A program made the position numbers and the translations under genes. From positions 71,525-135,524 of the forward strand of contig CAYVAJ010000001.1 of the NCBI GenBank assembly GCA_964448725.1: a stretch of DNA of 64,000 nt. The letters run 5' to 3'. The DNA is from an uncultured Gammaproteobacteria bacterium (lineage in GTDB: Bacteria; Patescibacteriota; Microgenomatia; Levybacterales; GWA1-39-11). The notes below the pieces were generated by a model that had not been told where the DNA came from, did not search any database, and was given only the letters and a program-made list of their open reading frames with translations. Below, piece after piece: positions 25,826 through 63,950 of the stretch (positions are counted from its first letter, which is position 1; each line of letters opens with the position of its first letter).

Positions 25826-25854
25826 GTAACTGTTTTTCACACGTTTTCCTCTTT

Positions 25855-35629: not shown

Positions 35630-35723
35630 GGGCAGTAAATTTAAACTTAAAATATAAAATTAAAAAACAAAAATGCTATCAATACTTAGGATCATTTTAA
35701 GCTCTCAGTTTTACATTTTACAT

Positions 35724-36347
35724 TTACAATATAATATTTGTTACATCTTCAGATTGAAAATCGAGTGAAACTGTTTCCTGGTTATAGAGTTCATACAGTA
35801 CCTTTGCTACTTCGCTTGATTCAAGTGGTCGTGCAGTAAGTCCCATACGTTGAATCTGACTAATTACTCCATTTTGCTTACTTATAACTCCATCACGAAT
35901 TCGTTCCTGTAGTGTTTGTTTCTTGTTATTTGGAGCAGTAGGACCAAGTTCTAAAGAAGAAAAAGGAATAACAACATAGATTTTTTTGTTCAGTAAATTT
36001 TCTCCTTTAACCAGTTCCTGAATAAACTGCTTATACATAACTAAATGCTCTGATATACGGGGATCTTGTGCTTTTTCTACTTTAGCTTCAATCATCTCTA
36101 AATAATCAGTCATATCTACTTTTTTAGAAACAATAAAAATTTGTACTGCAGATGAGAGTGAGTTAAGAAATGACATAAATCCATAAATGCGGGCATTTTG
36201 TTCATCTGCTGAGAGAAGGAAGAAGTTAACAGACGATACCTCTAAAATTGAAGAGGCATTATTTCCTTTGAGGAAAAGAATTCCGTCTTTAATATCTTCT
36301 ACTTCTGTAAACTGTTGAGTTGTTGAGTTGATCTTTGCTTTTGCCAT
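35724..36347 (-). CDS. VirB4 N-terminal-domain-like protein (separate ORF; split VirB4)
   Basis: IKDGILFLKGNNASSILEVSSVNFFLLSADEQNARIYGFMSFLNSLSSAVQIFIVSKKVDMTDYL resembles the N-terminus of Gram-positive VirB4 homologs (TraE/PrgJ/TcpF-like). A 94-bp gap and a different frame separate it from the ATPase ORF. Confidence 0.5.
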   Translation of the reverse strand: MAKAKINSTTQQFTEVEDIKDGILFLKGNNASSILEVSSVNFFLLSADEQNARIYGFMSFLNSLSSAVQIFIVSKKVDMTDYLEMIEAKVEKAQDPRISEHLVMYKQFIQELVKGENLLNKKIYVVIPFSSLELGPTAPNNKKQTLQERIRDGVISKQNGVISQIQRMGLTARPLESSEVAKVLYELYNQETVSLDFQSEDVTNIIL

Positions 36348-36404
36348 AGTTCTAATAATATCAGTATACCGTATTCTGGATGCAGTTATTAAGAATTTTT
36401 ACTG

Positions 36405-37724
36405 TCATACCGTAGATACAGGACTTTGTGTTGGTGCTGGCATATTTCCAAACAAGTCTCTTCGTAATTTTTCCCTTTGGTCAATTGAAGTTATCTCAAG
36501 CGGGTTAAATATTTCTCCTTTCATCTCAACTTGTACTGTCTCAAATTCATGATTTTTTCCAGGATCGTCAAAATATATTTTATATGTACCATTAGGAAGC
36601 GGAGTAGCAGAGATAAATTGACCTAAAGCATTTGTTTTAAATGCTCTTACTGGTATCTCATTTGTATCAACTACTTCAACAAGAATGTTTTGAAGCACTT
36701 TTCCACGTGGATCTTTAATTATTCCTAGTACAATATTAGGAATATCAGGAAGAGAGGGGAATCCTGAAGTAAGATTGGATTGTGGGGTGATAGTTTTTAC
36801 AGTATTTGCTTTTGGCGCTTCTTTCTGTGTTGGGGTAACTGGTGTGGCTTGGGAAACTTGCTTTGCTTGCTGTAATACTTTTTGCTGATAAGATGCTGTT
36901 TGCCCTAATGATTCTGCTAATTTTTGCTCTAGATCTCGGACTTTTTGTTCAAGCTCGGCAGTGTATCCTGCTGTTTGTTCGTATGTCCGAATATCTTGAA
37001 TCTCTTTTTTAATCTCTGCAACTTCATCTGCTGCTTTTGGCGCAGGAGAAGCAACTGGTTTTACTACTTCTGTTTGTGCCATTTTTTGGTTAATTTCTTC
37101 TTCTGATACCTGAGGTAATACAGGTTTAACAGGATTGACTACTTCCTGTTCTTTTATAACTGGCTGGACTCTTACTGGCATAACTTTTTTCGTTTCGTTT
37201 GCAAGTGGGGTTGGTGTAACAATAGCTGTTCCAGGATTATCAAAGGAAGCTTTTAAGCTTGCAAAGTACTGCATCTCCTGATTGTCAGGTCTGAAATATG
37301 AGTTGCGCAGTGCACTTGCCAATGCTTGTCTTTTTGCAGTATCTTTTGACTGTTGTGGCGCTTGTTTCGGTTGCTGCGGTTGTTGCACTGTTTTTGGAGG
37401 TTTTAAAAATTCATACTGTGAGAGATCAATTCCTTTTTTGCGATAAATAAACTGATTTTCTCGTGGTACTGACCGGGCAAAATAAATAAGCATTTTATCA
37501 AGTGGTCTACCACCTACTGGTACAAAAGCAAGTGCTACACCAATAAGACCAAAAATTATCATAAGTGGGTACTTGAGCAAGAAGTGGAGAGGAGAGACAA
37601 AGGTAATGGTACAAAAAATTCCCGCTGCAACAACATATGCAAATTGCTTAACAGTCATTGAACCGATAATTTTAAATTTAAACCCAGTAACGTCTTGAGG
37701 AATTGGATGATTCTCCATATACAT
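36405..37724 (-). CDS. PrgI/VirB3-like membrane protein with long C-terminal extension (PQ linker, coiled coil, beta-sandwich domain)
   Basis: N-terminal HPIPQDVTGFKFKIIGSMTVKQFAYVVAAGIF matches the PrgI-family opening motif and is followed by a TM hairpin. The ORF track starts at a TTG; ATG 37724 is chosen. Confidence 0.5.
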   Translation of the reverse strand: MYMENHPIPQDVTGFKFKIIGSMTVKQFAYVVAAGIFCTITFVSPLHFLLKYPLMIIFGLIGVALAFVPVGGRPLDKMLIYFARSVPRENQFIYRKKGIDLSQYEFLKPPKTVQQPQQPKQAPQQSKDTAKRQALASALRNSYFRPDNQEMQYFASLKASFDNPGTAIVTPTPLANETKKVMPVRVQPVIKEQEVVNPVKPVLPQVSEEEINQKMAQTEVVKPVASPAPKAADEVAEIKKEIQDIRTYEQTAGYTAELEQKVRDLEQKLAESLGQTASYQQKVLQQAKQVSQATPVTPTQKEAPKANTVKTITPQSNLTSGFPSLPDIPNIVLGIIKDPRGKVLQNILVEVVDTNEIPVRAFKTNALGQFISATPLPNGTYKIYFDDPGKNHEFETVQVEMKGEIFNPLEITSIDQREKLRRDLFGNMPAPTQSPVSTV

Positions 37725-38039
37725 CAGCGTATAACGTGAAAATTTTAGATTCAAGCATCTCAAACTGTGTCAAAGGACAACAAAAGGTGTGAAAAGGAGA
37801 TAAAAAGCCTTAAAGTGGGCAGAGAAGAGATGGATTGTAGGTATTATGTAATGTCTGTCACTAAAAAATACAATGGAGTATGTTAACATCTGGGTAACTG
37901 AATAGAATTGCTGCCCATCGCGAGAGTTTAATTGTTGTGGCGTGATAGTACAACTGTCCTGGCTCTTTTTTACTGATATATAAGTAATTGCTTATAAAAA
38001 TCAGAATCTTTTTCCTATGCTCATAACATACAAAAAATA

Positions 38040-38933
38040 TTATTTTGTAGCGCTCGAGACAATGCTGAAAGTGCCTGCAATAAGCATCAATAATAATAAC
38101 CCAGCAAGCTGTGTATTGTCAGATTCAATAAGTTTTTTCAAACGGTTAGCTTCTTCAGGGTTATCATTACTAAGTTCAATAATAATTTCTTCCATTCGGT
38201 TTTGACGAAATAAATTTAACATTTCTTGGGCACGGGGATTCTTTTCTGCAAGAGATTCAATCTTTTCTTTATAGATTGTGCTTAAGTTAGTTATAGATTC
38301 TTGCAGGTTTTCTGGTAAATCTTGTACTGCCGTCTCTCCATTTTGGAGAATATCAATATATGTTTGAAATATTACTTGCTCATCGTCAGTAAACTGTGAT
38401 GCAATTACATCTCTTTCTGCTACGAGATAGGCAAATGCAACTTCTTTACGAGGAAGGACTTGAGTGATTAAGTTGCCATCAGGCATTTTAATGGTACAGG
38501 TAAGTGTACTCTCATCTCCGTTAGTGATTCCTTGGATTTCACCATTCTGCCCATTTATGGGAATCTGCATTGGGTTCTCACCAACCATTTTATATTTTTG
38601 GTCACTGTAACCCAACAAAAGTTCAGTCCCTTGTTTCAGTTTTTTCTGCGCTGGATCATCAATTTCCTCAAGCTGCTTTCCGTTAAATTCTTCAGATGCG
38701 GTAATTATCATAAGTGCACCAATTTCTTGAATTTGTTGAGCATATATAGCAGTTCTTGATTGCTCATCCTCTATACTTTCCTCCATAGTATCGGTATCAT
38801 TGGGTATATTTTCTTGAGGTTCTGAGTTATCAGTATTATCGTTTTGCTCTACATTTCCCGACAATGTACCAGCTTCTGAAGAGTCATTCGTATTAATCTC
38901 AGCTTCAGTCGGATGTGGTGACTGTTCTTCCAT
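38040..38933 (-). CDS. hypothetical acidic protein with C-terminal TM anchor
   Basis: About 300 aa, D/E/N-rich N-terminus, C-terminal LAGLLLLMLIAGTFSIVSSATK helix. Start at ATG 38933 (the track uses a TTG). Confidence 0.4.
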   Translation of the reverse strand: MEEQSPHPTEAEINTNDSSEAGTLSGNVEQNDNTDNSEPQENIPNDTDTMEESIEDEQSRTAIYAQQIQEIGALMIITASEEFNGKQLEEIDDPAQKKLKQGTELLLGYSDQKYKMVGENPMQIPINGQNGEIQGITNGDESTLTCTIKMPDGNLITQVLPRKEVAFAYLVAERDVIASQFTDDEQVIFQTYIDILQNGETAVQDLPENLQESITNLSTIYKEKIESLAEKNPRAQEMLNLFRQNRMEEIIIELSNDNPEEANRLKKLIESDNTQLAGLLLLMLIAGTFSIVSSATK

Positions 38934-38984
38934 ATAATAAGCATACTTGAAAACACTTACAGTAATCAACTAAGATTTAAGTAT

Positions 38985-41801
38985 ATGCCAGACATAATCC
39001 CAGAGCAGCAACCTGTTCAATCTTCATCAAGCGGAGTTTCTACTATGGAGAATCGTTTCCGTGCTGTTACATTAAAGCGAAATGATTTTATTAAGGAAAT
39101 AGATACGGGATTGATAATAAACGATAAAAATAAAGAGGTGGGGAGAAAAAATGAACATGTAACGTTTAGTGAGGATCTTCGCCAGCAATACTCAACATTT
39201 CTCGATAATTATGTTCGCAACCTTATTGAAATTCAGAACAAGGACAGAACGTTTTTGGAGACAAAAAGTAGAATACAAGACAAATTAATGCTTAATCTTT
39301 TATCTTCAGAAGAAAAGGACCCCCAAGGAAGAGCAATTACTACTCAAGAGGGATGGTCTCTAAGAAAGGTAGATGAGGCGAAAATCCAACAGTTTTTAGA
39401 AACTCAACAGGGATGGACGCTTGCAAATATGGCGCTTGAACAATATACCTCAATGATGATGTTTGCACTCTCACTCGAAGCATCTATTGTGCCTGAAGGA
39501 GATAGGGATAAGTTATTAAGAAATTTTAAGATTGATAATGGTATCAATCAAGGAGCGTTCTGGAAATGGGCAGCAAACAGACGTCCCCCGATCTATCCTG
39601 AAAAACCTGGTTTTTTTAAGAGAGGTAAAAGGACGGAAATTAAGCCTAACCCTGACGTACTGTTGGCGATGAAAAATAACCCTGAAGAAGCAAAGTTTAT
39701 TTGGGAGCTTACTGGAATTGATGTTGATGATTTTACCATTGATCCAGTAACTGGAGAGGTTATAGCAAATGCCGGTGTTAAGATAACTGACGCAGTTGAG
39801 GAGAAACAAAAAAGTATTATTGGAAATTTGAAGTCAAGACAGCAATTTTACGAGTCTTTAGGAATACCTTCAAAACAGTTGGACGCAATGGATTCTCAAT
39901 TTATATATAGCTATGTAAATGGAAGCTCTGAAGAAATTCCAACCCATGTACACCAAAGGATTATTGACCGTTTCAAACCAAACAGAACAATAGTTGATGC
40001 AGCAGGATTACACCCCGGTGAACCTGGTTTTGATCCTAACACCGTTAATGTAGAAGAAGTATTGCAAAAATACTTAAAGGTAAAACGAGATATATTTGTG
40101 CGGCTTGCTCAGGAAGCTGTTGCGCGGCAAGTACAAGGTACTGAAGACTTAAGTAAATCACTTACTGTAATTCGTACTGCGTTGGAAGATGTAAGAAAGG
40201 GTAGAGAGGGAACTATTGCACAGCGAAGAAATAAGGAAGCACAGGAAAGAATTGGGGTACTAGAAAAAGAAAAGCATGAGATTAGTGAAAAGAGAAGACC
40301 GTTGGAAGAGTTCGCTGAAAAACAAAAAGCAGTTCAGCAAACAGTCAAAGAACTTTCCGAATCATATGGTGTAAATATCCCTGCAGGAAGCGATTTTGAG
40401 ACAACGGTAACTACTGAACTTAATACTATTCAAAACCAGATTGAAGGAGTGACTCCTCCCGGTGGCGGAGCACGTGCAGGGGGTATTGAGCAGCAAATTG
40501 AGCAAGAAAGGCTTGCAATGCAAAATTGGATCGATACTCAAACAAATGCAGCTATTGCAGCACGTGTTGGTGCGTTGGGAGGAAGGGGAAGTCTACCTCA
40601 AAGTGAGATAACTAATATTGTAACTGGATATAGGGAGACTGCTGAGAGTTCATATGGAGCTCGTATTCAACGGTTAGAGGCGCAAAAAAGACAACTAGAA
40701 GAACGGCGGAATAATCTTAATACTCTTTTGTCTCGAAATAGAAACGCAGTTAGAGAAGAACGAGAATCTGAACAAAAAATTGTTAACCAAGCTCCAAAGG
40801 AGCTTGATGCTATGAGAGCATCGTATGAATTAGTTGTAAATTCTGCCGGGGCAACAATTACCGCAGACATGCTTGAAAACAGGAATGTTGACCAATTAAT
40901 TCCGCTATTAACTGCAGCGCCATATAATCAACCGAATACGACTCCTGAACAACAAGCTGCACTGCGTGAATTAGTTATCAGAGCAAAAACTGAACTGAAG
41001 GGAGAAAGACAAGAAGGATTTGAGCCAAGTCCAGCAAACCAGACACAAGAGTACAACGATATTATTAATCAAGCAGGTGCAACTATTACATCAAATGATC
41101 TTCTTTCTCTCTCAGATCAAGAGATTGAAAATAGGCTTACGCAACCTCCATATAATTTTCCTGCTGCAGGTATTCATGATCGTATAAATCTTGCCCGTGC
41201 AGAAGCACAAAAGAAACTGCGAATTCGTTATGCGGTACTGCTTGATGAACGGGAATCAGACCTAGGCAACCAAATCAAACAATTGGAAGATAAAATGAAA
41301 TCACAGACAAGCTTTGATAGAGAAGAGAAAATTCTACAAACAGCAGAAAGAGCGATAAGCAGGCAAGAAGAGGTATTTACTAATGCGATTGATATTGTTA
41401 GTGACATTGGTCGGTATACAAAGGTTGATCATGTGACAAATGCCGATACTACATACTCAGAGTCAGAAAGAGCAGCAGGTTATTCTAAAGGGTATTATGA
41501 ACTAATGGATTATCTTTTTTCTTATCAAGAAAACCCCGATATATCTGATAGAAATGAGTATTTTCAGGCCATTCAAGAATCACTTCCTCCTGAAAAACTT
41601 GCTGTAATTCTTAATGAGCGATTAAATCTTCGGCTAATTCCTGTTCCGCCTGGTTTTGTTGGTCCACTAGGAGCAAATATGATCAATCTTGAAAATGTAT
41701 TTCAACGAATGAGTAGAAAGAAATTATCTCCACGTGACATGCAAAGGACATTGTCAGATGTTATTATAAGATTGAAAGACGAAGCGATAGCAATAGTATG
41801 A
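38985..41801 (+). CDS. large hypothetical coiled-coil protein (938 aa)
   Basis: Long ORF with consistent codon usage and heptad-like E/K/Q-rich segments; no recognised catalytic motif. Confidence 0.5.
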   Translation: MPDIIPEQQPVQSSSSGVSTMENRFRAVTLKRNDFIKEIDTGLIINDKNKEVGRKNEHVTFSEDLRQQYSTFLDNYVRNLIEIQNKDRTFLETKSRIQDKLMLNLLSSEEKDPQGRAITTQEGWSLRKVDEAKIQQFLETQQGWTLANMALEQYTSMMMFALSLEASIVPEGDRDKLLRNFKIDNGINQGAFWKWAANRRPPIYPEKPGFFKRGKRTEIKPNPDVLLAMKNNPEEAKFIWELTGIDVDDFTIDPVTGEVIANAGVKITDAVEEKQKSIIGNLKSRQQFYESLGIPSKQLDAMDSQFIYSYVNGSSEEIPTHVHQRIIDRFKPNRTIVDAAGLHPGEPGFDPNTVNVEEVLQKYLKVKRDIFVRLAQEAVARQVQGTEDLSKSLTVIRTALEDVRKGREGTIAQRRNKEAQERIGVLEKEKHEISEKRRPLEEFAEKQKAVQQTVKELSESYGVNIPAGSDFETTVTTELNTIQNQIEGVTPPGGGARAGGIEQQIEQERLAMQNWIDTQTNAAIAARVGALGGRGSLPQSEITNIVTGYRETAESSYGARIQRLEAQKRQLEERRNNLNTLLSRNRNAVREERESEQKIVNQAPKELDAMRASYELVVNSAGATITADMLENRNVDQLIPLLTAAPYNQPNTTPEQQAALRELVIRAKTELKGERQEGFEPSPANQTQEYNDIINQAGATITSNDLLSLSDQEIENRLTQPPYNFPAAGIHDRINLARAEAQKKLRIRYAVLLDERESDLGNQIKQLEDKMKSQTSFDREEKILQTAERAISRQEEVFTNAIDIVSDIGRYTKVDHVTNADTTYSESERAAGYSKGYYELMDYLFSYQENPDISDRNEYFQAIQESLPPEKLAVILNERLNLRLIPVPPGFVGPLGANMINLENVFQRMSRKKLSPRDMQRTLSDVIIRLKDEAIAIV

Positions 41802-42160
41802 AATTAGGGACAAAGGATTTAATAAAAATATTACCGTTTGATGATCAGTTCAAGAAAGATATACTTGAACGATATGATTTTCTTGATGAAGATCAGAAGT
41901 TCAATATTCAAAATGTGGTCTGGGATACGTATAACCTCTTATTTGATATGAAACTGCAGGAAAATATTGACCTTGCACTTCAGATGGCTGCTCAAAATCA
42001 AGAAAAGTTGGATAAAGATTTTTATGATCGTGTTAAAGAGGTGACAGAGCAAGAGTTTTCGAGTGGAAGTTTTAAGTCAGTTGAACAAATGGATTTAGCG
42101 CAAACTAGAGAAAAGCTTCAAGAAATTTTACAAAAGATCGAAAGTGATGATTCCAATTAA
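41798..42160 (+). CDS. hypothetical acidic protein (120 aa), translationally coupled (ATGA overlap) to the 938-aa gene
   Basis: 4-nt overlap with the upstream stop; no recognised domain. Confidence 0.45.
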   Translation: MKLGTKDLIKILPFDDQFKKDILERYDFLDEDQKFNIQNVVWDTYNLLFDMKLQENIDLALQMAAQNQEKLDKDFYDRVKEVTEQEFSSGSFKSVEQMDLAQTREKLQEILQKIESDDSN

Positions 42161-42168
42161 CTGTTTCA

Positions 42169-42870
42169 ATGCATATACTCTTACTCATTGCTGAGTTAAT
42201 TTTCCTTTTTATAACCTCACGTTTTATTTCCAAATACCTTTTCATGCTTTTTTATAATCTCTTTAGAAAAGAGAGTGTTGCTGCGCGAGTAGTTGCATTT
42301 ATCTTTTTCCCAGGTACTCTTATCCACGAGCTTGCGCATTTTCTGATGGCAAAAACTTTATTCGTTCGTACAGGAAATATAGAATTGATGCCTGAAATAC
42401 AAGGAGATACTCTAAAATTAGGAAGCGTTCAAATTGCAAAAACTGATATTTTGAGACGTTTTTTAATTGGTGTTGCACCTCTTTTGATCGGGTCTATTCT
42501 TCTTATCATTATAATTTACTCATTTTTTAATTTTTTCCCTTTAACGAGCTTTGAATGGAGCTGGCAATATGTTTTATCAGTTCTGGTCGTGTTGTATGGA
42601 ATTTTTGTGATAACAAATACCATGTTTTCAAGTAAAAAAGATATGGAAGGAGCATTAGGCTTATTTATACTGTTAGTATTTTCTCTTTTAGTAATTTTTG
42701 TAGCTGGGAGAGGAGAGTGGGTAGTGAGAGTCATGGAAAATATTATTAACAATCCAACTATTCAGCAATATGTCAATAAAATAACTATATTCTTGTTTTT
42801 CCCAGTCATTATTAACGGTGTCGTGCTTCTCACCTACAATGGATTGAGGAAATTGAGAAAAAGGAATTAA
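42169..42870 (+). CDS. polytopic membrane protein with intramembrane HExxH motif (putative zincin-like membrane peptidase)
   Basis: FFPGTLIHELAHFLMAK within a hydrophobic helix; 5-6 predicted TM helices. Confidence 0.4.
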   Translation: MHILLLIAELIFLFITSRFISKYLFMLFYNLFRKESVAARVVAFIFFPGTLIHELAHFLMAKTLFVRTGNIELMPEIQGDTLKLGSVQIAKTDILRRFLIGVAPLLIGSILLIIIIYSFFNFFPLTSFEWSWQYVLSVLVVLYGIFVITNTMFSSKKDMEGALGLFILLVFSLLVIFVAGRGEWVVRVMENIINNPTIQQYVNKITIFLFFPVIINGVVLLTYNGLRKLRKRN

Positions 42871-43220
42871 AAACCTGGATCAATTATTATTCCTCCATCT
42901 GGATTTCCGCCAACTACATTTTGGTTAACACCTAATATTTCAAAAAAACCATTAAAAAATGCAAATGATAAGAGTATAAAAATAAGACCTATTATTGCAA
43001 ATGTTAATGTTTTTTTTGCAGAGCTGATTGCTTCAGGATCTCCTTGAGATGTAACAAATCTAATACCTGATATGATAATAAAATATAGAGCAACAATTGA
43101 TGACAGTATTATTGCAGCATTAATTAGATTTGAAAAAAGAGGCCAGATACAGCGAAGTGTCGCTACTTGTGCTTCACCCCCCTCTAAGCATCCTTCCCAT
43201 GGTCGTGTAAACAAATCCAT
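42867..43220 (-). CDS. T4SS pilin-like protein (CPR-type VirB2/TrbC-like), paralog 1
   Basis: Shared C-terminal motif IISGIRFVTSQGDPEAISSAKKTLTFAIIGLIFILLSF. Its stop overlaps the stop of the convergent gene (TTAA). Confidence 0.5.
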   Translation of the reverse strand: MDLFTRPWEGCLEGGEAQVATLRCIWPLFSNLINAAIILSSIVALYFIIISGIRFVTSQGDPEAISSAKKTLTFAIIGLIFILLSFAFFNGFFEILGVNQNVVGGNPDGGIIIDPGF

Positions 43221-43284
43221 AAAATAATTATAGTAACTTGCTCGGAAAAAATCTATTTATAATCGAAAGGTAAAAGGATAAAAA

Positions 43285-43719
43285 TTAATCAGTAATTTCA
43301 ACTTGATTTGGTATTAACTTTGGAATTTCAAGTGTATTAATTGATCCTAGCCCAAATATTTCAAGCACAAAATTTAAAATAACATACGCAAGAATCACAA
43401 GGATAAGGCCAATAATAGCAGCAATAATTTGTCCTCGTGCCTCAGAAACTTTTTCTTTATCTCCGCCTGAGACAATCCATTTAATACCACCCCAAATAAG
43501 CCAAATGAGTGCAGCAAGTATTGCAATAAAGAAAAGAGCATTGATTGCAAATCGTACTACTGTATTAATATCCAAATCTATCCCAAACATACCAGGTGGG
43601 CGTAGGTCTACCTTCTCATTACCATCAATTACTGGTTGAGCAAATGCAGGGACTACTGTTTGAAGGTAGACTGCGCTGGAAAGAGTAAGTGCGCCTAGTG
43701 GTCTGAATAATTTTTTCAT
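43285..43719 (-). CDS. T4SS pilin-like protein, paralog 2 (with signal peptide)
   Basis: MKKLFRPLGALTLSSAVYLQTVVPAFAQ signal peptide, then WGGIKWIVSGGDKEKVSEARGQIIAAIIGLILVILAY. Confidence 0.6.
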   Translation of the reverse strand: MKKLFRPLGALTLSSAVYLQTVVPAFAQPVIDGNEKVDLRPPGMFGIDLDINTVVRFAINALFFIAILAALIWLIWGGIKWIVSGGDKEKVSEARGQIIAAIIGLILVILAYVILNFVLEIFGLGSINTLEIPKLIPNQVEITD

Positions 43720-43810
43720 GTCTATATTTATTAGAGCAGTTTTTAAAATGCTTGTCAATAGAGTAATTTATTATCTGTTAGGAAAGGTTAACTCTTAAGT
43801 AATTAAATCC

Positions 43811-44182
43811 CTAGTCAGTACGTGTAAACGGGAATATGCTAATGCCCATAATGCTCCCGACTGTGCTTACTATAACAAACGAGAGAAGGATAACAATAAT
43901 TCCAATGATCGCATAGATGATTGTTTTACGGGCTTTATCAAGTTTTTCTTTGTCGCCACCAGATGTGATCCAGATAATGCCTCCCCTAATGAGGAAAACT
44001 AATGTAACAATTATACCGATAAAGAAAAGAGCGGATATGCCAAAGTTAATAATATCACTTAGCCCAAGCTGATCTTCTAGACTCAAAGGATCTTGAATTG
44101 GTTGATCCTGTCCTGGTAATTTGAGGGCGAGTAATTTTTCTTTCATACTATCTAGTAAAGCCTGGATAGAAAAAAATGTCAA
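43811..44182 (-). CDS. T4SS pilin-like protein, paralog 3
   Basis: IRGGIIWITSGGDKEKLDKARKTIIYAIIGIIVILLSF. TTG start at 44182, or ATG at 44146. Confidence 0.55.
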   Translation of the reverse strand: MTFFSIQALLDSMKEKLLALKLPGQDQPIQDPLSLEDQLGLSDIINFGISALFFIGIIVTLVFLIRGGIIWITSGGDKEKLDKARKTIIYAIIGIIVILLSFVIVSTVGSIMGISIFPFTRTD

Positions 44183-55998: not shown

Positions 55999-56568
55999 AT
56001 GAAAGGATTTATTGGACTGGTATTATTAATGTGTCTCCTCTTTACTACTGTATCTGTCTCTGCTCAAACAATTACTCTCCCTGCAACTGATAGTGCTGCT
56101 ATGGCAAGTGCTCCTGCACAGATCCACTATGACTTACCGTATCCAGGAATTCTACCTGATCATCCTCTGTACTTTTTAAAAGTTATGCGTGATAGGTTAG
56201 TTGGTTTTTTGATAAGTGACCCAGTGAAAAAAGCTGAGTTTAATCTACTGCAATCTGACAAAAAGCTTTTTGCTGCGCGTATGCTGTTTGAAGATGATAA
56301 GGATGAACTGGCTTTAGAAACATTATCGAAAAGTAATAACTATATGCATAATGCTATCTCTGCTGCCAATCGGGCAGAAGAAGCTGGTCGTGATCCAAGT
56401 AGTGTAGTGCAGAAAATTAAAACATCAATTGCAAAACATAAGCAAGCAATTGAAGAAGTTATTAATACAGACACTCCAGTTACCAATCAGCTCACCGGTG
56501 AACTAAAGCGACTAAAAGAAATAGAGAAATTTTACTTCCAACATTTTCCTCAAAAAAGTAACGAGTAG
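55999..56568 (+). CDS. DUF5667-like secreted protein
   Basis: Signal peptide MKGFIGLVLLMCLLFTTVSVSAQ; the DLPYPGILPDHPLYFLK motif is typical of DUF5667. Start re-placed at ATG 55999. Confidence 0.45.
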   Translation: MKGFIGLVLLMCLLFTTVSVSAQTITLPATDSAAMASAPAQIHYDLPYPGILPDHPLYFLKVMRDRLVGFLISDPVKKAEFNLLQSDKKLFAARMLFEDDKDELALETLSKSNNYMHNAISAANRAEEAGRDPSSVVQKIKTSIAKHKQAIEEVINTDTPVTNQLTGELKRLKEIEKFYFQHFPQKSNE

Positions 56569-56873
56569 TACACAATACAACTTATTTTCACGTCATAAGT
56601 TTTTCTTACAAATCTATTTGAAGCTAAGACGTTTTCCTATAGTAAAATGATATAGTTTGATCAATTGACACTGGGAGATATAGTGGTCTATATTGATATC
56701 TGCCACTAGATGTGGAGGAGAATTGAAGCTTACGACATAAATCTTGTAAGTTCTTCAAATTGCACATTTATACTTTTCAGTTTGAAGTTTTAAGTTTTCA
56801 ATATTATTTCATTAAATCGTAAATCATTGAGAATTTATTAAAAATCGAGAATTGAAAATTGAAATTTGTAACC

Positions 56874-57329
56874 ATGCGCTGTCCGTATTGCAATCATACC
56901 GGTTCTGAAGTAGTTGAGACTCGGGTAGGAGAAGAAGGATCAAATATCCGCAGAAGACGGTTATGTTCTGATTGTAATAAGCGATTTACAACATATGAGC
57001 GAATTGAGGGAGTTACCCTTATCGTTCGTAAACGTGATGGAAAGCGTGAGCAATTTAGTCGTGACAAATTAAAAATTGGATTGATTAAATCCTGTGAGAA
57101 AACAACTGTATCATTGCAGGAAATAGAAGAGGTTGTTGCCAGTATTGAAAGAGAGTTGCGTTGTGGAGATTCTTTAGAGGTAGAAAGTGAAAGAATCGGT
57201 AAAATGGTTGCTGATCAACTAAAGGAAAAGAATAAGCTTGCGTATATTCGATTTGCTAGTGTATTTAAGCATTTTGTAGATATTGAGGATGTAGCTCAAG
57301 AATTAAAAGTGCTAAATAAGAAAAATTAA
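56874..57329 (+). CDS. nrdR: transcriptional repressor NrdR
   Basis: MRCPYCN...CSDCNKRFTTYERIE zinc ribbon plus an ATP-cone domain. The track starts at an upstream TTG; ATG 56874 is chosen. Confidence 0.9.
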   Translation: MRCPYCNHTGSEVVETRVGEEGSNIRRRRLCSDCNKRFTTYERIEGVTLIVRKRDGKREQFSRDKLKIGLIKSCEKTTVSLQEIEEVVASIERELRCGDSLEVESERIGKMVADQLKEKNKLAYIRFASVFKHFVDIEDVAQELKVLNKKN

Positions 57330-57337
57330 AAATTACT

Positions 57338-59767
57338 ATGAAACTTGATGGAATTCGACAAAAAGTATTTTTAGACCGCTACGCTTTAAAAGATAAAGAC
57401 GGTTCTTTGCTTGAACATACTCCTGAGGAAATGTGGAAACGTGTTGCTCGCGGTGTTGCCCAGACAGAAGACAAAGAAGTACGATATCACTGGAAAAAAG
57501 AGTTTTACCGTGTGATGGAAGACTTTAAATTTGTCCCAGCAGGGCGAATTTTATCAGGTGCAGGAACAGGCTATCAAGTAACCTACTTTAACTGCTTTGT
57601 AATTCCTTCTCCAAACGATTCCCGACATGGAATTTTGCAAGCACTTGGTCAACTCGTTGAGATTCAAGCGCGTTCTGGTGGAGTAGGTCTTAATCTCTCT
57701 TCACTCAGACCAAAAGGTGCTCGTGTCAAAAAAGTAAATGGAACTTCTTCTGGTCCGGTTAACTGGGCAACATTATTCTCTGTTGCAACACATGATATTG
57801 TACAGCAAGGCGGATCACGCCGTGGTGCAACAATGCTTATGTTATGGGATTGGCATCCTGATGTTGAAGAGTTTATTACTGTAAAAGAGGATCTGACAAA
57901 AATTAATGGTGCAAATCTCTCTGTGTGTATATCTGATGCTTTCATGGAAGCAGTTAAAAATGATGCTGATTGGGATCTTGTTTATCCTGATCTTGACGAT
58001 CCAAAATATGATTCTCATTGGAATGGTGATATAGAGGAATGGAGAAAGCTTGGTGGAAAAGTAAATGTCCACAAGACTGTGAAAGCTCGAGAACAGTGGA
58101 ATCTCATCTGTAAAGCTGCATGGCAATCAGCTGAACCGGGGCTTCACTTTATGGACCGTTCTAATAAAAGATCAAACACCTGGTATTTTGAACGATTGAT
58201 TGCAACTAATCCATGCGGAGAGCAACCGCTTGGAGGATGGGCTGTCTGTAATTTAGGTGCAATGAACCTCTCTGCATATATAACTGGCTATACTGCTGAT
58301 ACTCCAGGAAAATTTGACTATAAATCATTTGCAGCAGATGTAAAAGTTGCAATGAGACTGCTTGATAACGTAATTGATCAGACGTACTACTTCTTCCCAG
58401 AAAATGAAAAATGTGCAAAAGAAATTCGCCGCACAGGACTTGGTATTATGGGGCTTGGTGATGCGCTCATCAAGATGAACCTCCCTTATGGGTCAGAAGA
58501 ATCACTGCCTGTTATTGAAAAAATCTTTAAGACATTGCGTGATAGTGCGTATGATGCATCAAGTGATATTGCAAAAGAAAAAGGATCATTCCCTAAATTT
58601 GATAAAGAACAATATCTGAAAGGGTATCACATCAAAGAATTGCCAAAAGAGTTACAGAAAAAAATTGAAAAGCAGGGTATTCGCAATGCAGTACTTTTAA
58701 CCATTGCACCAACCGGTACGACATCACTTGTATCAGGAGTAAGCTCAGGAGTAGAACCTGTCTATGAATTTGCATTCAAGAGACGCTGGCGCGGAGGAGA
58801 GGATATGATGTACCACCCGCTGTATGAGGAATGGCTAAAAGCACATCCAGGCGAAGAAAGACCTAAGTACTTTGTTTCTGCAAATGATCTTACTCCTGAA
58901 GAGCATGTAAAAGTACAAGCTGTTGCGCAAAAATATATTGACTCTTCAATTTCAAAGACTGTGAATGCGCCAAAAACACACAGTGTAGAAGATGTAAAAC
59001 GGTTATATATGATGGCGTATGATCAAGGTCTAAAAGGTATTACCTATATGCGGGATGGGTCACGACAAGGAGTGCTTGAACGGGTTGAGGAAAAGAAAGA
59101 AGAGAAAAAAGACACGCCAGTAATGAAACTGCAAAAACGACCACCAGTTATGGTAGGTGCAACATATGAGACAGAGACACCATTTGGTCATTCCTTTATT
59201 ACGATTAATAGCGATAAAGATGGGAATCCTTTTGAAGTATTTATTAATTCAGGTAAATCAGGATCAGATGTAATGGCAATGTCTGAGGCGCTAGGCCGTA
59301 TTATCTCCATGATTCTTCGGATGCAGAGCCCAATTGCGCATAGAGAACGAATTCGCCAAATTGTAAGCCAATTATCAGGAATTGGTGGCGCGCGGACTGT
59401 CGGATTTGGCATGAATAAAGTCCGTTCCATGCCTGATGCGTTAGCAAAAGTCTTAGCAGAACACTTTAGTTTTAAAGTAAATGGACGAGTTGTTGATGCA
59501 GCAAAGACACACTCTGCAGGCTCAGGGCAAGCAAGCACAACAAATGGTAATGGTGCAACAAATGGAAATGGTCATGGCTTAGCATTGAGCACACATACTC
59601 CTGTTCCAGCAGATGCTACACCGCAGACAACTGTTCTGCAACAATTAACACTGCCACAAGAAGAATCACGACAACTCTTTGATATCTGCCCCGACTGTGG
59701 TGGCGCATCCCTTGCACGCGAAGAAGGCTGTAAGAAATGCTACGCCTGCGGATATGCAGAGTGTTAA
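57338..59767 (+). CDS. nrdJ: class II (adenosylcobalamin-dependent) ribonucleotide reductase NrdJ
   Basis: N-terminal LDRYALKDKDG...EMWKRVARGVA, active-site NPCGEQPL, C-terminal CPDCGG...CKKCYACGYAEC zinc ribbon. No nrdB/nrdF present. Confidence 0.85.
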   Translation: MKLDGIRQKVFLDRYALKDKDGSLLEHTPEEMWKRVARGVAQTEDKEVRYHWKKEFYRVMEDFKFVPAGRILSGAGTGYQVTYFNCFVIPSPNDSRHGILQALGQLVEIQARSGGVGLNLSSLRPKGARVKKVNGTSSGPVNWATLFSVATHDIVQQGGSRRGATMLMLWDWHPDVEEFITVKEDLTKINGANLSVCISDAFMEAVKNDADWDLVYPDLDDPKYDSHWNGDIEEWRKLGGKVNVHKTVKAREQWNLICKAAWQSAEPGLHFMDRSNKRSNTWYFERLIATNPCGEQPLGGWAVCNLGAMNLSAYITGYTADTPGKFDYKSFAADVKVAMRLLDNVIDQTYYFFPENEKCAKEIRRTGLGIMGLGDALIKMNLPYGSEESLPVIEKIFKTLRDSAYDASSDIAKEKGSFPKFDKEQYLKGYHIKELPKELQKKIEKQGIRNAVLLTIAPTGTTSLVSGVSSGVEPVYEFAFKRRWRGGEDMMYHPLYEEWLKAHPGEERPKYFVSANDLTPEEHVKVQAVAQKYIDSSISKTVNAPKTHSVEDVKRLYMMAYDQGLKGITYMRDGSRQGVLERVEEKKEEKKDTPVMKLQKRPPVMVGATYETETPFGHSFITINSDKDGNPFEVFINSGKSGSDVMAMSEALGRIISMILRMQSPIAHRERIRQIVSQLSGIGGARTVGFGMNKVRSMPDALAKVLAEHFSFKVNGRVVDAAKTHSAGSGQASTTNGNGATNGNGHGLALSTHTPVPADATPQTTVLQQLTLPQEESRQLFDICPDCGGASLAREEGCKKCYACGYAEC

Positions 59768-59854
59768 GCTGAGAACGGAGAGTGTAGAGTGTAAAACAAA
59801 ATTTAAAACTTTACACTTTTAGTTCTAAGCTTTAATTTAAAAATATAATGTGTA

Positions 59855-60030
59855 GGTAAGAAGGTCCCGATGGTAGTTTCCATTCGGGATCCCCGATTTA
59901 ATCGGGGGGTGTAATTCCCTCTCAGTGCCGCTACTGTCCTTCGATAAACTCAGGATCCTGAGCCCGCCGAAGGGATAAAGACAGAAAACTACTCATTATT
60001 CATCATCCCGAGCCAGGAATTTTTTTATAT
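59855..60030 (+). promoter_or_regulatory. cobalamin (B12) riboswitch upstream of the adenosyltransferase gene
   Basis: AAGGTCCCGATGG ... GGTGTAATTCC ... GCCGCTACTGT ... ACTCAGGATCCTGAGCC (B12-box-like) ... CGAAGGGA, in consensus order on the + strand; T-run at 60019-60027. Confidence 0.6.
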
Positions 60031-60054
60031 CCAACTCGAGAATTCTATAATAGT

Positions 60055-60606
60055 ATGCCGATTTACACAAAAACCGGGGATAAAGGGAAGACTTCCTTGC
60101 GAAGCGGAGTGCGGGTGTGGAAAGACTCAACTCGGGTTGATACGTATGGCACGATTGATGAACTTAACTCATATCTTGGTATCATAGCTGCAGAAATTAG
60201 TGATGTACAAAGAGGCTGGAAAAAATACGTATTAGATATAGTTCTGACTATCCAACACGATTTATTTTACATAGGTTCCTCACTTGCTCAGAGCGAAGTG
60301 ATGCTTGACCGACTTGATCCACATACGCAAAACTTTGAACAAGAAATTGATGCAATGACAAAACAATTACCAGAATTGAGTAATTTTATTTTACCTGGAG
60401 GAGGGAAAATTGGTGCGCATTTTCAGTATGCCAGAACACTTGCAAGAAGATCAGAACGGCGTGTCGTAGCACTTGCACGTGCAGAAGAAGTAGATGAAGC
60501 ATTAATTCGGTATGTAAATAGACTTTCTGACTTATTTTTCACGATGAGCCGTTTTGCAAATTATAAAGAAAAAGTTGCAGAGACCATCTGGAAGCCGAAA
60601 TCTTAA
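60055..60606 (+). CDS. ATP:cob(I)alamin adenosyltransferase, PduO-type
   Basis: MPIYTKTGDKGKTSL...RVDTYGTIDELNSYLG opening signature of PduO/MMAB-type adenosyltransferases. Confidence 0.85.
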   Translation: MPIYTKTGDKGKTSLRSGVRVWKDSTRVDTYGTIDELNSYLGIIAAEISDVQRGWKKYVLDIVLTIQHDLFYIGSSLAQSEVMLDRLDPHTQNFEQEIDAMTKQLPELSNFILPGGGKIGAHFQYARTLARRSERRVVALARAEEVDEALIRYVNRLSDLFFTMSRFANYKEKVAETIWKPKS

Positions 60607-60674
60607 AAAGATATCCACCTAAACTAATCGAGATTCGAAAGTCTCTCTGGCAGATTAGGATAAAATGAAGTTTT

Positions 60675-61931
60675 ATGGAAAATAGAGCATATATACCAGA
60701 AGAAGCATATCAACAATATATTCATCCAGTACCTACAGAGAGAGAGTTAGAGCAGAGTGGAATAACAAATTTTGAACAAAAAAGATTTGGAGTATCAACA
60801 CGGAAAGTAGTACAGTACGAGCTAGATTTTGATCGTCAGCAAGCACGTGATTTGCTGAGGAATCATGATCAGACAGCGTATGATGACCAGGTTGCTAACT
60901 TTAAATCATTTACTGAGATGCAGCTGGTCACAGCACTTGGTGAACGATTTAATAGAGGATTGAGCCGTTATTCATATCGAAATATCGATGGCACGTTGTA
61001 TGGAGAACATAGTGATGAGCCATTCCTTAATGTGTTGGAGCGTGGAAGAGCGTATCGGGAGATACATGGAAATCCTATAGATCATGCACGGGAGAAAGCA
61101 GAAGTTGATGGTTTTAACAAAGTACAAGAAATACTTGGTGATGAGCAAACACCTAGTGGTACCATTATGCTTTCCATATCTCCACCGGGAGGAAAAGAAT
61201 CGATATATACGCATAACTTTTACGATGGATTCAGGAAAAAAGAGGATGGGGATATTGAAGTAGTGCGGTTTAGTAATGCACTTGATGCCTGTGAAACAAT
61301 TGAGAAGTTGCGGGAATTAGACCCCAATATTAGTATTCCAGAACAATTAGATGATGTTTCTTTGCTTTCCAATCCAATTATTATTTCACCAGATACTACT
61401 GCAAACCTTACATTGGATACTCTTCATACTCACCTTCATCAAGATCACGAAATAATGAGTGAAGAAGATTTTGAGAAAGTTAGAGAAATGTGTGCATTTC
61501 TCATAGTAAGTTATATTAACTCCTTATTAGATGATCCTGATGATACATATACTCATGCACGGCTTTATAATGCATTGTTGAATAAAGCTGATGAAATCGC
61601 AGATGCACTAAAAGGAAAATCAAAAGATATCTCATATATACAATCTTCTGCTGATATGACCGAACAGGAAATATATTATTTAGGGAGTATGCCAGTACGT
61701 GAAGTTGATACAGGATGTGGTTTTTCAGGTGGAGCAGAGAATGATATGGGAATACAGAAGAGTGCAATGGGTCCATACTCTGTAGCTTCATTTGGGGTTG
61801 AGGATCGATACGGTTCATTGACCTTTAAATGTCCGCATTGTAACTATGAGAATAAGCGTCCGTATGGAAAGCTCATTGAGAACTGTGGTGATGGACAATC
61901 AGGTGGTTGTAAAAAAAATGTCCGGTGTTAA
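60675..61931 (+). CDS. hypothetical protein with C-terminal zinc ribbon
   Basis: 418 aa; C-terminal CPHCNYENKRP...CGDGQSGGCKK. Confidence 0.45.
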   Translation: MENRAYIPEEAYQQYIHPVPTERELEQSGITNFEQKRFGVSTRKVVQYELDFDRQQARDLLRNHDQTAYDDQVANFKSFTEMQLVTALGERFNRGLSRYSYRNIDGTLYGEHSDEPFLNVLERGRAYREIHGNPIDHAREKAEVDGFNKVQEILGDEQTPSGTIMLSISPPGGKESIYTHNFYDGFRKKEDGDIEVVRFSNALDACETIEKLRELDPNISIPEQLDDVSLLSNPIIISPDTTANLTLDTLHTHLHQDHEIMSEEDFEKVREMCAFLIVSYINSLLDDPDDTYTHARLYNALLNKADEIADALKGKSKDISYIQSSADMTEQEIYYLGSMPVREVDTGCGFSGGAENDMGIQKSAMGPYSVASFGVEDRYGSLTFKCPHCNYENKRPYGKLIENCGDGQSGGCKKNVRC

Positions 61932-61941
61932 TCTCCATATT

Positions 61942-62100
61942 ATGAATAAAACAAAACTTTCTGATACAAATTGTGAGGTTTGTTTTAAAATTATTTGCAA
62001 ATCATGCGGGTGGGAGCCAAATAAAAAAGAAGTAGAGGCGATACAGAGTGGAGTACTTTCCAATTGTCCTGAGTGTGGGTGGAGTCCTAGAGTATCGTGA
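61942..62100 (+). CDS. small zinc-ribbon protein (52 aa)
   Basis: CEVCFKIICKSCGW...CPECGW: two CxxC pairs. Start re-placed at ATG 61942. Confidence 0.3.
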   Translation: MNKTKLSDTNCEVCFKIICKSCGWEPNKKEVEAIQSGVLSNCPECGWSPRVS

Positions 62101-62226
62101 AACATGTGTGGATAACTTTTCACAGAATAACTATATCAAACTGGTACATGTGTATCAAACTGTATCATTTAGCCTTGAAAAGTAGATATTGAAAAAAAGT
62201 CGAAACTGTGTATACACTAGAGCCAC

Positions 62227-62955
62227 ATGTGGAAAACTCTAGTAAACCTTATATTCCCTAAATACTGTGTTGCATGCCACCGAGTAGGAAATTATATCTG
62301 TGATGCGTGTTTTTCTTACATTCGCTTTGATCCTACTCCTATCTGTCCAGTCTGTAATAAGCACTCAATAGAAGGAGCAACCCATCCAAAATGTCAAACG
62401 TCTTATAGCATTGATGGCCTTGTTTCAGCAGTTGTATATGCTGGAGTGATAAAACGTTTAGTGTACCAATATAAATACGCACCATATGTGTCAGATTTGA
62501 AAGATGATATAGGAAAGCTAATGTGCGAAAGCTTAGAACAAAATGAAATATTCCATATGGTATTAAATGATAATCCATTGTTAGTACCTGTTCCACTCCA
62601 CCAGAGGAGACTTTCTGCAAGAGGGTATAATCATGCATTACTCCTCTGCTCTTATGTCGCACAATATTTTGAGTTGAAAACTGTTGATGATCTTATTGTT
62701 AGAAATCGTGCTACAAAGCCGCAGTTTAAACTCTCAAAAAAACAGCGCTACTCTAACGTAAAGAATGCATTTTCAGTAACTGAAAAACAACACATTGCGA
62801 TAGCAGGAAAAACAATAGTACTGGTTGACGATGTGGCAACCACCTGCTCTACTCTCAGTGAGGTTGCAAAGGTTTTAAAAAGACAAGGAGCAAAAGAAGT
62901 ATGGGGAGTTGTGTTTGCGCGGGAAGATACATTTGGTGGAGATGGGGGGCAATGA
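62227..62955 (+). CDS. comFC: ComF-family competence protein (double zinc ribbon + phosphoribosyltransferase domain)
   Basis: N-terminal CVACHRVGNYICDACF...CPVCNK; C-terminal PRTase motif IVLVDDVATTCSTL. The 3' end overlaps the ssrA 3' end on the opposite strand. Confidence 0.7.
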   Translation: MWKTLVNLIFPKYCVACHRVGNYICDACFSYIRFDPTPICPVCNKHSIEGATHPKCQTSYSIDGLVSAVVYAGVIKRLVYQYKYAPYVSDLKDDIGKLMCESLEQNEIFHMVLNDNPLLVPVPLHQRRLSARGYNHALLLCSYVAQYFELKTVDDLIVRNRATKPQFKLSKKQRYSNVKNAFSVTEKQHIAIAGKTIVLVDDVATTCSTLSEVAKVLKRQGAKEVWGVVFAREDTFGGDGGQ

Positions 62956-63347
62956 ACCCCCGTCCAATGAATGTGCATTAAAAACATCTACAAGCGTAGT
63001 CGATTATTGAAATTCATTATACCCGAACGAGAATCGACACCCGAAGATATAACTAAGGTCAAAGTTAGGATAAAAAGAAGACCAGCCTCTTTACCTTTTT
63101 CTCAACTAAATTTTTGCCTGAAACGCCCCGTTGAGAAAAGGCGTAGCAGACAGCTCGTGCCTATTAAGCAGCGAATGCCATAGCAGGTGCGAAACCTGTA
63201 TTTGGCATAAGGTCAGCAGCGAACCGCTGAACCTTGCGGCGGATGGTTGTTCCATCAGCATGTATGTTTTGAACCTGTTTTGCGACTATGATTCAAAGTC
63301 GGCTTGCAGTTTTTAAAGAACGATTCTTGTCGATACAATACATCCCC
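62934..63347 (-). ncRNA. ssrA: tmRNA (ssrA)
   Basis: Minus strand: 5' GGGGATG...ATCGACAAG; tag-reading frame ends ...GCT ATG GCA TTC GCT GCT TAA TAG (AMAFAA**); 3' tRNA-like end GGACGGGGGTTCATTGCCCCCCATCTCCACCA. Seven acceptor base pairs form with the 5' end; located directly downstream of smpB. Confidence 0.7.
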
Positions 63348-63509: not shown

Positions 63510-63950
63510 TTATGCCCATTTTTTCAATTCTCTCTCAACATCTCTATCAATTGCTTTTCTACGTAACTCGCTGCGTTTTTCATGCTGCGCTTTGCCTTTC
63601 ACAAGTGCAATTTCAAGCTTAATGCGGTTATTTTTAAGATATAATGCAACTGGTACAAGCGTGAAGTTCCCCTGGTCTAATCGTGATTTAAGCGCAGTTA
63701 ATTCTTTTTTATGGATTAGTAACTTACGGCTGCGTGATTCATCATAATTTTCAACACGAGAAAATTTATACGGAAATATTTTTGCATTTACTAAATATGC
63801 CTCACCGTCTAAGATGCGTACATGTGCACCGTCAAGATTTACATGATTTGATCGAATTGCTTTTACTTCAGACCCAAGCAAGACAATACCAGTCTCAAGT
63901 CTTTCTACAATGGTATAATTCCGATTTAATTGTTTGTTAATAATTTTCAT
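63510..63950 (-). CDS. smpB: SsrA-binding protein SmpB
   Basis: 146 aa; LLGSEVKAIRSNHVNLDGAHVRI...YLVNAKIFPY...LLIHKKELTALKSRL. Confidence 0.9.
   Translation of the reverse strand: MKIINKQLNRNYTIVERLETGIVLLGSEVKAIRSNHVNLDGAHVRILDGEAYLVNAKIFPYKFSRVENYDESRSRKLLIHKKELTALKSRLDQGNFTLVPVALYLKNNRIKLEIALVKGKAQHEKRSELRRKAIDRDVERELKKWA

Follow-up and report, generated by a model that had tools for sequence, protein, structure and literature searches.

The 64,000-nt stretch of contig CAYVAJ010000001.1 analyzed here (hereafter the window) carries an nrdR-nrdJ-pduO gene module in which a candidate class II cobalamin riboswitch lies between nrdJ, the gene for a ribonucleotide reductase (RNR), and pduO, the gene for an adenosyltransferase. 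A conserved hypothetical gene, open reading frame (ORF) 418, follows pduO. All coordinates are positions within the window and refer to the + strand unless (−) is given (Table 1). The gene identities proposed in a preliminary description of this DNA are borne out by Pfam and by three further models, TIGR00244, TIGR02504, and TIGR00636, all above their cut-offs. NrdR scores 178.6 bits with TIGR00244 (cut-off 124.65), and its ATG at 56874 agrees with the start of the Zn-ribbon domain. NrdJ has the Pfam domains Ribonuc_red_lgC (the RNR barrel; E = 2e-124), lgN, and TSCPD, and scores 593.1 bits with TIGR02504 NrdJ_Z (cut-off 399.95), while the class I alpha model scores lower (369). Its C-terminal tail is Cys-rich (…CPDCGG…CKKCYACGYAEC, then the stop), as described for class II RNRs (PMC5704485). 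The pduO product scores 181.9 bits with PF01923 (cut-off 24) and 178.8 bits with TIGR00636 PduO_Nterm (cut-off 108.45), and its close homologs all come from Levybacteria-like Microgenomates metagenome-assembled genomes. The window itself is from a Levybacteria-like member of the Microgenomates (Patescibacteria).

When about 45 other ORFs of the 64-kb window were surveyed with Pfam, there was no second RNR, no NrdB/NrdF-like ORF for a separate radical-generating beta subunit, no cob/cbi genes, and no btu-like or otherwise recognizable B12 transporter. Thus, for the window, the earlier statements hold that its sole RNR is class II and that corrin biosynthesis genes are not seen.

Table 1. Features of the nrdR-nrdJ-pduO module and of related loci; positions are those of the window unless a related locus (L-number) is named.
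Feature	Position	Strand	Basis
Promoter-like TTGACA-18-TATATT (56665-56694) and two NrdR-box-like palindromes	56665..56717	+	Pattern match
nrdR, transcriptional repressor of RNR genes	56874..57329	+	Pfam Zn_ribbon_NrdR and ATP-cone
nrdJ, predicted class II (adenosylcobalamin-dependent) RNR	57338..59767	+	Pfam and TIGR02504
AU-rich hairpin of about 25 bp in the nrdJ-aptamer spacer	59768..59830	+	Minimum free energy (MFE) −25.9 kcal/mol, inverted repeat
Predicted cobalamin aptamer, class II architecture	59845..59999	+	Lineage covariance model, covariation, alignment of relatives
43-nt insertion in the P4 5' strand, two hairpins	59865..59907	+	Alignment, MFE fold
P6 extension hairpin, 39 nt, CCUUCG…CGAAGG, inner CUCAGG/CCUGAG	59938..59976	+	Inverted repeat
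P13-like regulatory hairpin UCC[CGAGCCA]GGA (60006-60018) and U7 tract (60020-60026)	60006..60027	+	Comparison with relatives
CUCGAG, pairs with the P13 5' side (UC-CGAG x CUCG-GA)	60035..60040	+	MFE, comparison
pduO-type ATP:cob(I)alamin adenosyltransferase	60055..60606	+	PF01923, E 1.4e-53
ORF418, conserved hypothetical protein	60675..61931	+	41 homologs, no Pfam/NCBIfam match
Second (post-pduO) aptamers	L002 2752-2833; L003 4537-4636; L015 4512-4606		Lineage covariance model/Rfam searches
Second (post-pduO) aptamers	L017 4560-4636; L063 4647-4725; L079 669-747; about 15 more loci		Lineage covariance model/Rfam searches

Downstream of nrdJ, the ordered hallmarks of a cobalamin riboswitch that had been recognized earlier (GGUGUAAUUCC, GCCGCUACUGU, AAAGACAGAAAAC, and CCCGAGCCAGGA) are present. 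At Rfam gathering thresholds, the window gives transfer-messenger RNA (tmRNA) as its sole match, and the aptamer region has none. Permissive scans of three sub-windows return only fragments of about 15 bits: RF00174 on the spacer gives a local match of 15.0 bits (model positions 51-164; gathering score 31.5), and RF01689 on the trimmed region gives another of 15.1 bits (model positions 24-66; gathering score 36.5). For comparison we used 80 PduO-homologous loci from GTDB genomes, designated by L-numbers. Spacer elements of Levybacteria-like relatives reach the RF01689 gathering score in 11 of 19 loci scanned (38.1 to 55.5 bits). A lineage covariance model, trained on nine Rfam-passing relatives with the window left out, gives a single significant match in the 64 kb, at 59837-59999(+), with 40.4 bits and E = 2.4e-8 over the full length of the model (1-81). 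The next match (12.9 bits, E = 1.1) lies at 23716-23808 (−) within a ClpB-like gene, and we judge it to be due to chance.

The intergenic RNA has a folding z score of −4.26 against shuffles. In an alignment of the window with 20 relatives, which was fitted to the model and is thus biased toward the structure, 94.5% of pair cells are canonical (68.5% when shuffled) and none of 500 shuffles reaches the observed score. Compensatory double changes occur at 14 of the 19 pairs of these 21 sequences, with slid-partner controls 23-47% paired. The window itself shows 16 of the 19 model pairs as aligned, the GG/CC pairs beside L4 falling in insert columns. The model had also shifted the L4 segment into insert columns; with its placement corrected, the window keeps all 21 positions that are invariant in relatives. 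Over shared columns it is 83% identical to the aptamer of its nearest relative, L001, which passes Rfam. This comparative evidence indicates that 59845-59999 encodes a true cobalamin aptamer. The preliminary description had treated an RF00174 score below threshold as grounds for discarding the riboswitch. Taken literally, that test would wrongly remove a true positive, because the aptamer is real but belongs to class II and scores sub-threshold.

The outer helix P1/P3 (59845-59855 with 59989-59999) is continuous over 11 bp, with one U-U mismatch. J3/4 reads GUAA, P4 GAAGG…CUC, and P5/L5 CAGUGCCGCUA; L4 (GGUGUAAUUCC) lies at 59908-59918. P6 pairs CUG (59934-36) with CAG (59982-84), and a B12-box-like AAAGACAGAAAA covers 59977-59988. 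The aptamer has no P2 arm and no large P7-P11 or P6 peripheral domain, and is therefore class II: the canonical cobalamin family (RF00174) named earlier is the wrong class, and the architecture is RF01689-like and Cbl-IIb-like. We also rejected CGAGCCAGGA, which the RF00174 alignment takes as the B12 box, since it is the loop of P13 and not the 3' strand of the aptamer's P6.

The window copy fails Rfam because of its 43-nt P4 insertion and 39-nt P6 hairpin. The P4 insertion forms two hairpins, UCCCGAUGG…CCAUUCGGGA and CCCCGA-UUUAA-UCGGGG, which are independent in the MFE fold. None of the 20 aligned relatives has an insertion in the P4 5' strand, and it is unique among the more than 50 aptamers examined; a pattern scan of JGI metagenomes likewise found no equivalent. 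A repeated or mobile element was considered and rejected, as the insertion occurs only once in the window and the site carries no insertion in any other genome. Smaller hairpin inserts are found inside L4 in L082 and L085. P6 hairpins of variable length occur at the same site in L002, L004, L008, L011, L012, and L087, and most relatives have a plain 7-nt P6 loop. The aptamer of the window is an insertion-bearing, new member of a known riboswitch class, placed within a conserved B12-RNR module.

That arrangement, nrdR-nrdJ-[cobalamin aptamer]-pduO, is real and conserved. The synteny DUF5667-nrdR-nrdJ-pduO is found in most Microgenomates loci of the set. In Gottesman- and Roizmanbacteria, nrdJ abuts pduO, and in the Levybacteria-like group the two genes are separated by a spacer of 190-290 nt. 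The lineage covariance model places an aptamer between nrdJ and pduO in 21 of the 80 loci. Our literature searches yielded no account of this nrdR-nrdJ-aptamer-pduO module of the candidate phyla radiation (CPR).

Among 52 related aptamers, 47 are followed on the 3' side by a hairpin with a CGAG loop. The loop sequence hardly varies (CGAGCA in 38), and the stem exists in at least eight co-varying variants, including UCC/GGA, CCC/GGG, UUC/GAA, GCU/AGC, and CUU/AAG. This conserved hairpin behaves as would be expected of P13/L13, the predicted kissing partner of L5. Little variation is seen in either L5 (UGCCGC) or L13; a single matched substitution, in L024 (UACCGC with CGAGUCA), agrees with a GCCG x CG(A)GC pairing. 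A P13 with an adjacent U-tract, as in the window, is also present in nine other leaders (L004, L005, L006, L008, L012, L013, L020, L023, and L088).

Relatives suggest how such a platform could work. In Levybacteria pduO leaders, P13 is followed by a GC-rich intrinsic terminator whose apex, CUCGGGAA, is complementary to UUCCCGAG (the P13 5' strand plus part of L13), and this complementarity is maintained through sequence changes. The relatives would therefore be OFF switches, because the free RNA can form an antiterminator and a ligand-stabilized P13 frees the terminator. The riboswitch had been described as driving pduO; these platforms indicate, on the contrary, ligand-dependent repression. 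The window lacks the GC-rich terminator, as do L001 and L002, its closest relatives. It retains P13, the adjacent U7 tract, and CUCGAG. The pairing of CUCGAG with the P13 5' side is the MFE structure of the isolated platform (−6.1 to −6.8 kcal/mol), and CUCGAG appears to be a remnant of the relatives' antiterminator pairing.

Gottesmanbacteria-type loci have a different platform. There, the 3' strand of P13 is a GGAGG Shine-Dalgarno sequence, 5-8 nt from the AUG, which is the classic class II translational design. Sequestration of a Shine-Dalgarno sequence was rejected as the mechanism in the window, since none of 20 genes examined there has a Shine-Dalgarno-like motif. In about 7 of these 20 genes, a TATAAT/TATACT/TACAAT hexamer ends exactly 6 nt before the ATG, which suggests widespread leaderless mRNAs in this genome; the starts examined include 1545, 3738, 18504(−), 20715, 22077, and 63950(−). 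A TTTATA-16-TATAAT element at 60024-60051 was considered as a leaderless pduO promoter and rejected, because it ends 3 nt before the ATG and not 6 nt, as in the apparent leaderless genes.

We consider it probable that 59845-60027 is a functional class II cobalamin riboswitch (RF01689-like and Cbl-IIb-like), lying within an nrdR-nrdJ-pduO-ORF418 unit and lowering pduO expression when adenosylcobalamin (AdoCbl) is abundant. Transcription would start at an NrdR-controlled promoter (about 56665-56694) and read through nrdR and nrdJ. Abundant AdoCbl would bind the four-way-junction aptamer and, via the L5-L13 loop-loop contact, stabilize the otherwise weak P13; expression of pduO, and probably of ORF418 too, would then fall. 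Such product feedback would uncouple cofactor activation from RNR synthesis. The read-out of relatives would be a choice between terminator and antiterminator, and in this genome the GC-rich terminator appears to have been lost. Attenuation here is probably weaker or follows a modified route, as P13 and U7 are the sole terminator-like feature. As a stand-alone intrinsic terminator they were rejected as too weak, P13 alone having only −1.7 kcal/mol; termination at U7 would thus depend on ligand and kissing loop, and in that form we keep it as a possibility.

Several points weigh against this interpretation. The window copy is sub-threshold in both Rfam models, at about 15 bits each. In solved structures the loop of P4 is engaged in a tertiary contact, and with a unique insertion in this helix the function of the aptamer is not guaranteed. 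The ligand could be hydroxocobalamin (HOCbl), methylcobalamin (MeCbl), or any corrinoid, given the IIa-like plain P6 loops of most members. The L5-L13 pairing register is unproven, because both loops are nearly invariant and RNAduplex was uninformative on it. With the canonical terminator missing and P13 so weak, termination at U7 is speculative, and the read-out in this genome is the weakest link of the model. Finally, a strong AU-rich hairpin follows nrdJ, and there may be an internal promoter.

The last point bears on whether the riboswitch is, as had been claimed, inside an operon. Upstream of nrdR, TTGACA-18-TATATT is the best promoter-like match of the region (11/12). Two CAC…GTG palindromes, CACTGGGAGATATAGTG (56669-56685) and GCCACTAGATGTGGAG (56702-56717), with starts about 35 nt apart, resemble NrdR boxes, as pattern matches only. 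Palindrome pairs about 34 nt apart also lie 5' of nrdR in L015 and L018, and other relatives have single boxes. The NrdR operator is described as two 16-bp boxes with a 15-16-bp linker (PMC13584703); the layout at 56665-56717 agrees with that design and is consistent with a candidate NrdR operator. A terminator scan called no + strand terminator in 56500-62300. In most relatives, the distance from the nrdJ stop to the aptamer is 12-55 nt, without hairpins or terminators, and we therefore favor read-through from nrdJ.

It is also possible, although we regard it as unlikely, that nrdJ transcripts end at the 59768-59830 hairpin and that a spacer promoter starts a separate riboswitch-pduO-ORF418 mRNA. 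The hairpin has a 25-bp stem (−25.9 kcal/mol) followed by a T/A-rich tract, a weak promoter-like TTTACA-17-TAATTT in 59810-59838 would give a start near 59845, and many gene-proximal promoters are apparently used in this genome. However, the scan did not call the hairpin a terminator, since the T-run after it is interrupted (TTTAATTT), and the −10 hexamer of the candidate promoter matches at only 3/6 positions. In L009 just 12 nt separate the nrdJ stop from the aptamer, and in most relatives the spacer is 35-55 nt long and free of hairpins. A TATAAT at 59844-59849 was rejected as riboswitch promoter: the hexamer is itself the P1 5' strand and so cannot serve the aptamer RNA. The conserved arrangement and the lack of terminators in relatives make the operon position of the riboswitch reasonable, with the separate transcript retained as its rival.

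The spacer has further peculiarities. In L005, L006, L012, L013, L020, and L023, the last seven codons of nrdJ (C-G-H-A/S-E-C-stop) are duplicated about 60-66 nt after the genuine copy, in varying frames, and in L012 with stop codons between the copies. An apparent premature stop in the nrdJ of relatives was rejected: the true stop is followed by a second copy of the 3' end of the gene. Of 23 differences between copies, 21 fall at third codon positions, and the other two are TCC versus AGC (both Ser) in L013. All seven third positions vary among the second copies (P about 3e-4). Such a pattern resembles constraint at the level of the peptide, beyond the ORF; translational bypassing, a micro-ORF, or a relic of recombination restoring the 3' end are possible explanations. 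The window retains only degenerate AGAGTGTA[G/A] relics of the repeated nrdJ 3' end (59758-59795), in the 5' arm of the spacer hairpin. In L005, nrdJ and the aptamer are separated by a long tandem array of GGAATTA (about 3570-3790), which is broken by masked or unassembled sequence (a run of N).

Class II aptamers have been divided into Cbl-IIa, with a bulged J1/3 and a plain loop, selective for HOCbl/MeCbl, and Cbl-IIb, with a paired or mismatched J1/3 and a short P6 hairpin, selective for AdoCbl (PMC7367189). The window aptamer has both the non-bulged J1/3 and the short P6 hairpin of Cbl-IIb. We assign it to a Cbl-IIb-like subclass tentatively, because a plain P6 loop is found in most of the family and the determinants of selectivity are dispersed, which makes secondary structure an unreliable guide (PMC9600662; PMC7367189). 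We think it rather doubtful, but worth weighing, that the aptamer senses HOCbl/MeCbl in the manner of Cbl-IIa, or total corrinoid, and thus acts as a general sensor of B12 sufficiency instead of mediating product feedback. Its best family, RF01689, has HOCbl/MeCbl-selective class IIa RNAs among its founding members (PMC7367189), and the plain 7-nt P6 loop of most Levybacteria members would suit such a ligand. Against it, none of the members has a bulged J1/3, the outer helix being continuous or with one mismatch in all of them, as in IIb, and an OFF switch on an adenosyltransferase is coherent with the product as ligand. In relatives, moreover, a second aptamer flanks pduO (in L003 as an RF00174 match), which leaves room for different selectivities.

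A third alternative, which we consider improbable, is that the element is a decaying relic, in which regulation has been abolished by two insertions and by loss of the terminator, leaving pduO and ORF418 constitutively expressed with nrdJ. The sub-threshold Rfam scores, the unique P4 insertion, the weak P13, and the terminator missing from the window, L001, and L002 would all be expected of such a relic. However, the invariant core positions, the helices, L4, L5, the B12-box-like segment, and the P13 loop are all intact, and both insertions are clean, self-contained hairpins at places where others tolerate insertions (L4 in L082 and L085; P6 in six loci). In addition, the L001 and L002 aptamers pass Rfam although they also lack the terminator, which suggests that the platform has changed rather than died. 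The idea that the motifs resemble a riboswitch only by chance, within an intergenic spacer that is structured, to which Rfam E-values of 0.06-0.6 on the isolated region might have lent some credit, is refuted by the full-length lineage-model match (E = 2.4e-8), by orthologous elements above the Rfam threshold, and by covariation.

Many Microgenomates have a second cobalamin aptamer directly 3' of pduO, which in Gottesmanbacteria-type loci is the sole aptamer. These second aptamers precede genes of the ORF418 family or of an unrelated family of about 650 aa ('MEKPSP…', with a hydrophobic C-terminal stretch). Small, membrane-anchored DUF4430 proteins are under the same aptamer type in L003, L066, L082, L083, and L084; L087 is also listed among such loci, and in L003 the DUF4430 gene (3017-3418) lies between aptamer and pduO. 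Transcobalamin-type B12 binders have DUF4430 as their C-terminal domain (PMC4350170), and the small DUF4430 proteins of these loci are likely to be B12-capture proteins of CPR bacteria. The 64-kb window has no DUF4430 gene. Control of transcobalamin-like proteins by the same aptamer type in relatives supports corrinoid scavenging in the lineage, and the earlier proposal that this organism salvages cobalamin from a host or partner, as a dependent symbiont, is plausible.

The regulated unit probably does not end at 60606 but includes ORF418, which would be co-regulated with pduO. The two genes are separated by a 68-nt gap without a terminator or an aptamer of its own, as is also true of the 14 nt between pduO and the ORF418 homolog in L001. 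The family comprises 41 homologs, all annotated as hypothetical and restricted to Levybacteria/Microgenomates, and ORF418 has no match in Pfam or NCBIfam. Its Cys348, part of a TGCG motif, is invariant, and a Cys4 ribbon lies at the C-terminus. Its AlphaFold2 model is confident (predicted local distance difference test score, pLDDT, 80.7), and no significant fold or sequence relative was found in the PDB, with weak zinc-ribbon resemblance only. Cobalamin aptamers lie directly 5' of ORF418 homologs in at least eight genomes (L002, L010, L015, L022, L040, L063, and L079, plus L077); the link of the family to cobalamin is via this riboswitch association only. We tentatively propose, as a bolder and rather unlikely possibility, that riboswitch-gated pduO and ORF418 form a minimal CPR pathway of cobalamin activation, with ORF418 a new B12-handling protein and the aptamer with its P4 insertion a functional new peripheral architecture of class II. 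ORF418 may then, for example, reduce cob(II)alamin, serve as a chaperone, or supply PduO as a decyanase/dealkylase.

These results have implications beyond the window. In Microgenomates, the conserved nrdR-nrdJ-pduO core suggests a B12 economy centered on DNA-precursor synthesis, and in some lineages cobalamin aptamers would control an adenosyltransferase, transcobalamin-like surface binders, and an uncharacterized protein family. The ORF418 family is a concrete candidate for the missing B12-handling step in organisms unable to make corrinoids. The intercistronic position of the riboswitch suggests two-tier control of the operon, whereby NrdR would sense nucleotides at the promoter and the riboswitch would sense the cofactor mid-operon. 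Annotation based on Rfam thresholds misses genuine riboswitches in CPR genomes with lineage-specific insertions, and synteny combined with a lineage-specific model can recover them.

Elsewhere in the window, the tmRNA (62934-63347 (−), 122.8 bits) adjoins smpB (63510-63950 (−)), and its 3' end overlaps the end of a ComF-like gene (62227-62955) by 22 nt. It is on the same strand as pduO in L001, L002, L004, and L013, and on the opposite strand in the window. A dnaA-dnaN pair at 24485-27126 makes it probable that the region of the replication origin is included in the window. A type IV secretion-like cluster at 33206-44182 (−) contains a TraG/VirB4-like P-loop ATPase, PrgI, and two type IV secretion system pilin genes; clusters of this kind are typical of CPR genomes. 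A surface protein of 3301 aa (4964-14869) carries CBM6/CBM35, SdrD-B, and dockerin domains.

Among known systems, the element is closest to RF01689, the 'AdoCbl-II' or class II family (Cbl-IIa env8 and Cbl-IIb). It shares with that family the four-way junction of P3-P6, the GGUGnAAnUCC L4, the GCCGC L5, and the CUG/CAG P6 with the 3' segment AAAGnCAGAAAAC, as well as the lack of P2 and P7-P11 and the presence of a downstream P13. It differs in its continuous outer helix, where the Rfam consensus has P1 and a bulged J1/3, in its two-hairpin P4 insertion and P6 hairpin, and in its P13, which lies 36 nt from the start codon and does not contain the ribosome-binding site. With class I (RF00174) it has core motifs in common, and it lacks the P2 stem-loop and the large P6 peripheral domain of that class.

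The B. subtilis btuF riboswitch responds only to the Ado form of cobalamin and depends on the adenosyltransferase BtuR (PMC9600662). At btuF (yvrC), in a B12 uptake operon, as in the window, cobalamin riboswitch logic is tied to the adenosyltransferase step (PMC7367189; PMC9600662). The response to the Ado form, read-out by transcription termination, and an L5-L13 kissing loop are features of btuF that our model would share. The btuF switch, however, includes a P2 arm and heads a transporter operon, at its 5' end, whereas that of the window is intercistronic, after an RNR gene, in a unit without a transporter gene. We presume that B. subtilis btuR lies in the same operon as btuF. Finally, RNR operons with NrdR boxes (PMC13584703; PMC9110341) resemble the window in that nrdR leads the operon and paired palindromes overlap a promoter-like site. 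The window, where these boxes are pattern matches, differs from them in having a second, RNA-based control point inside the operon.

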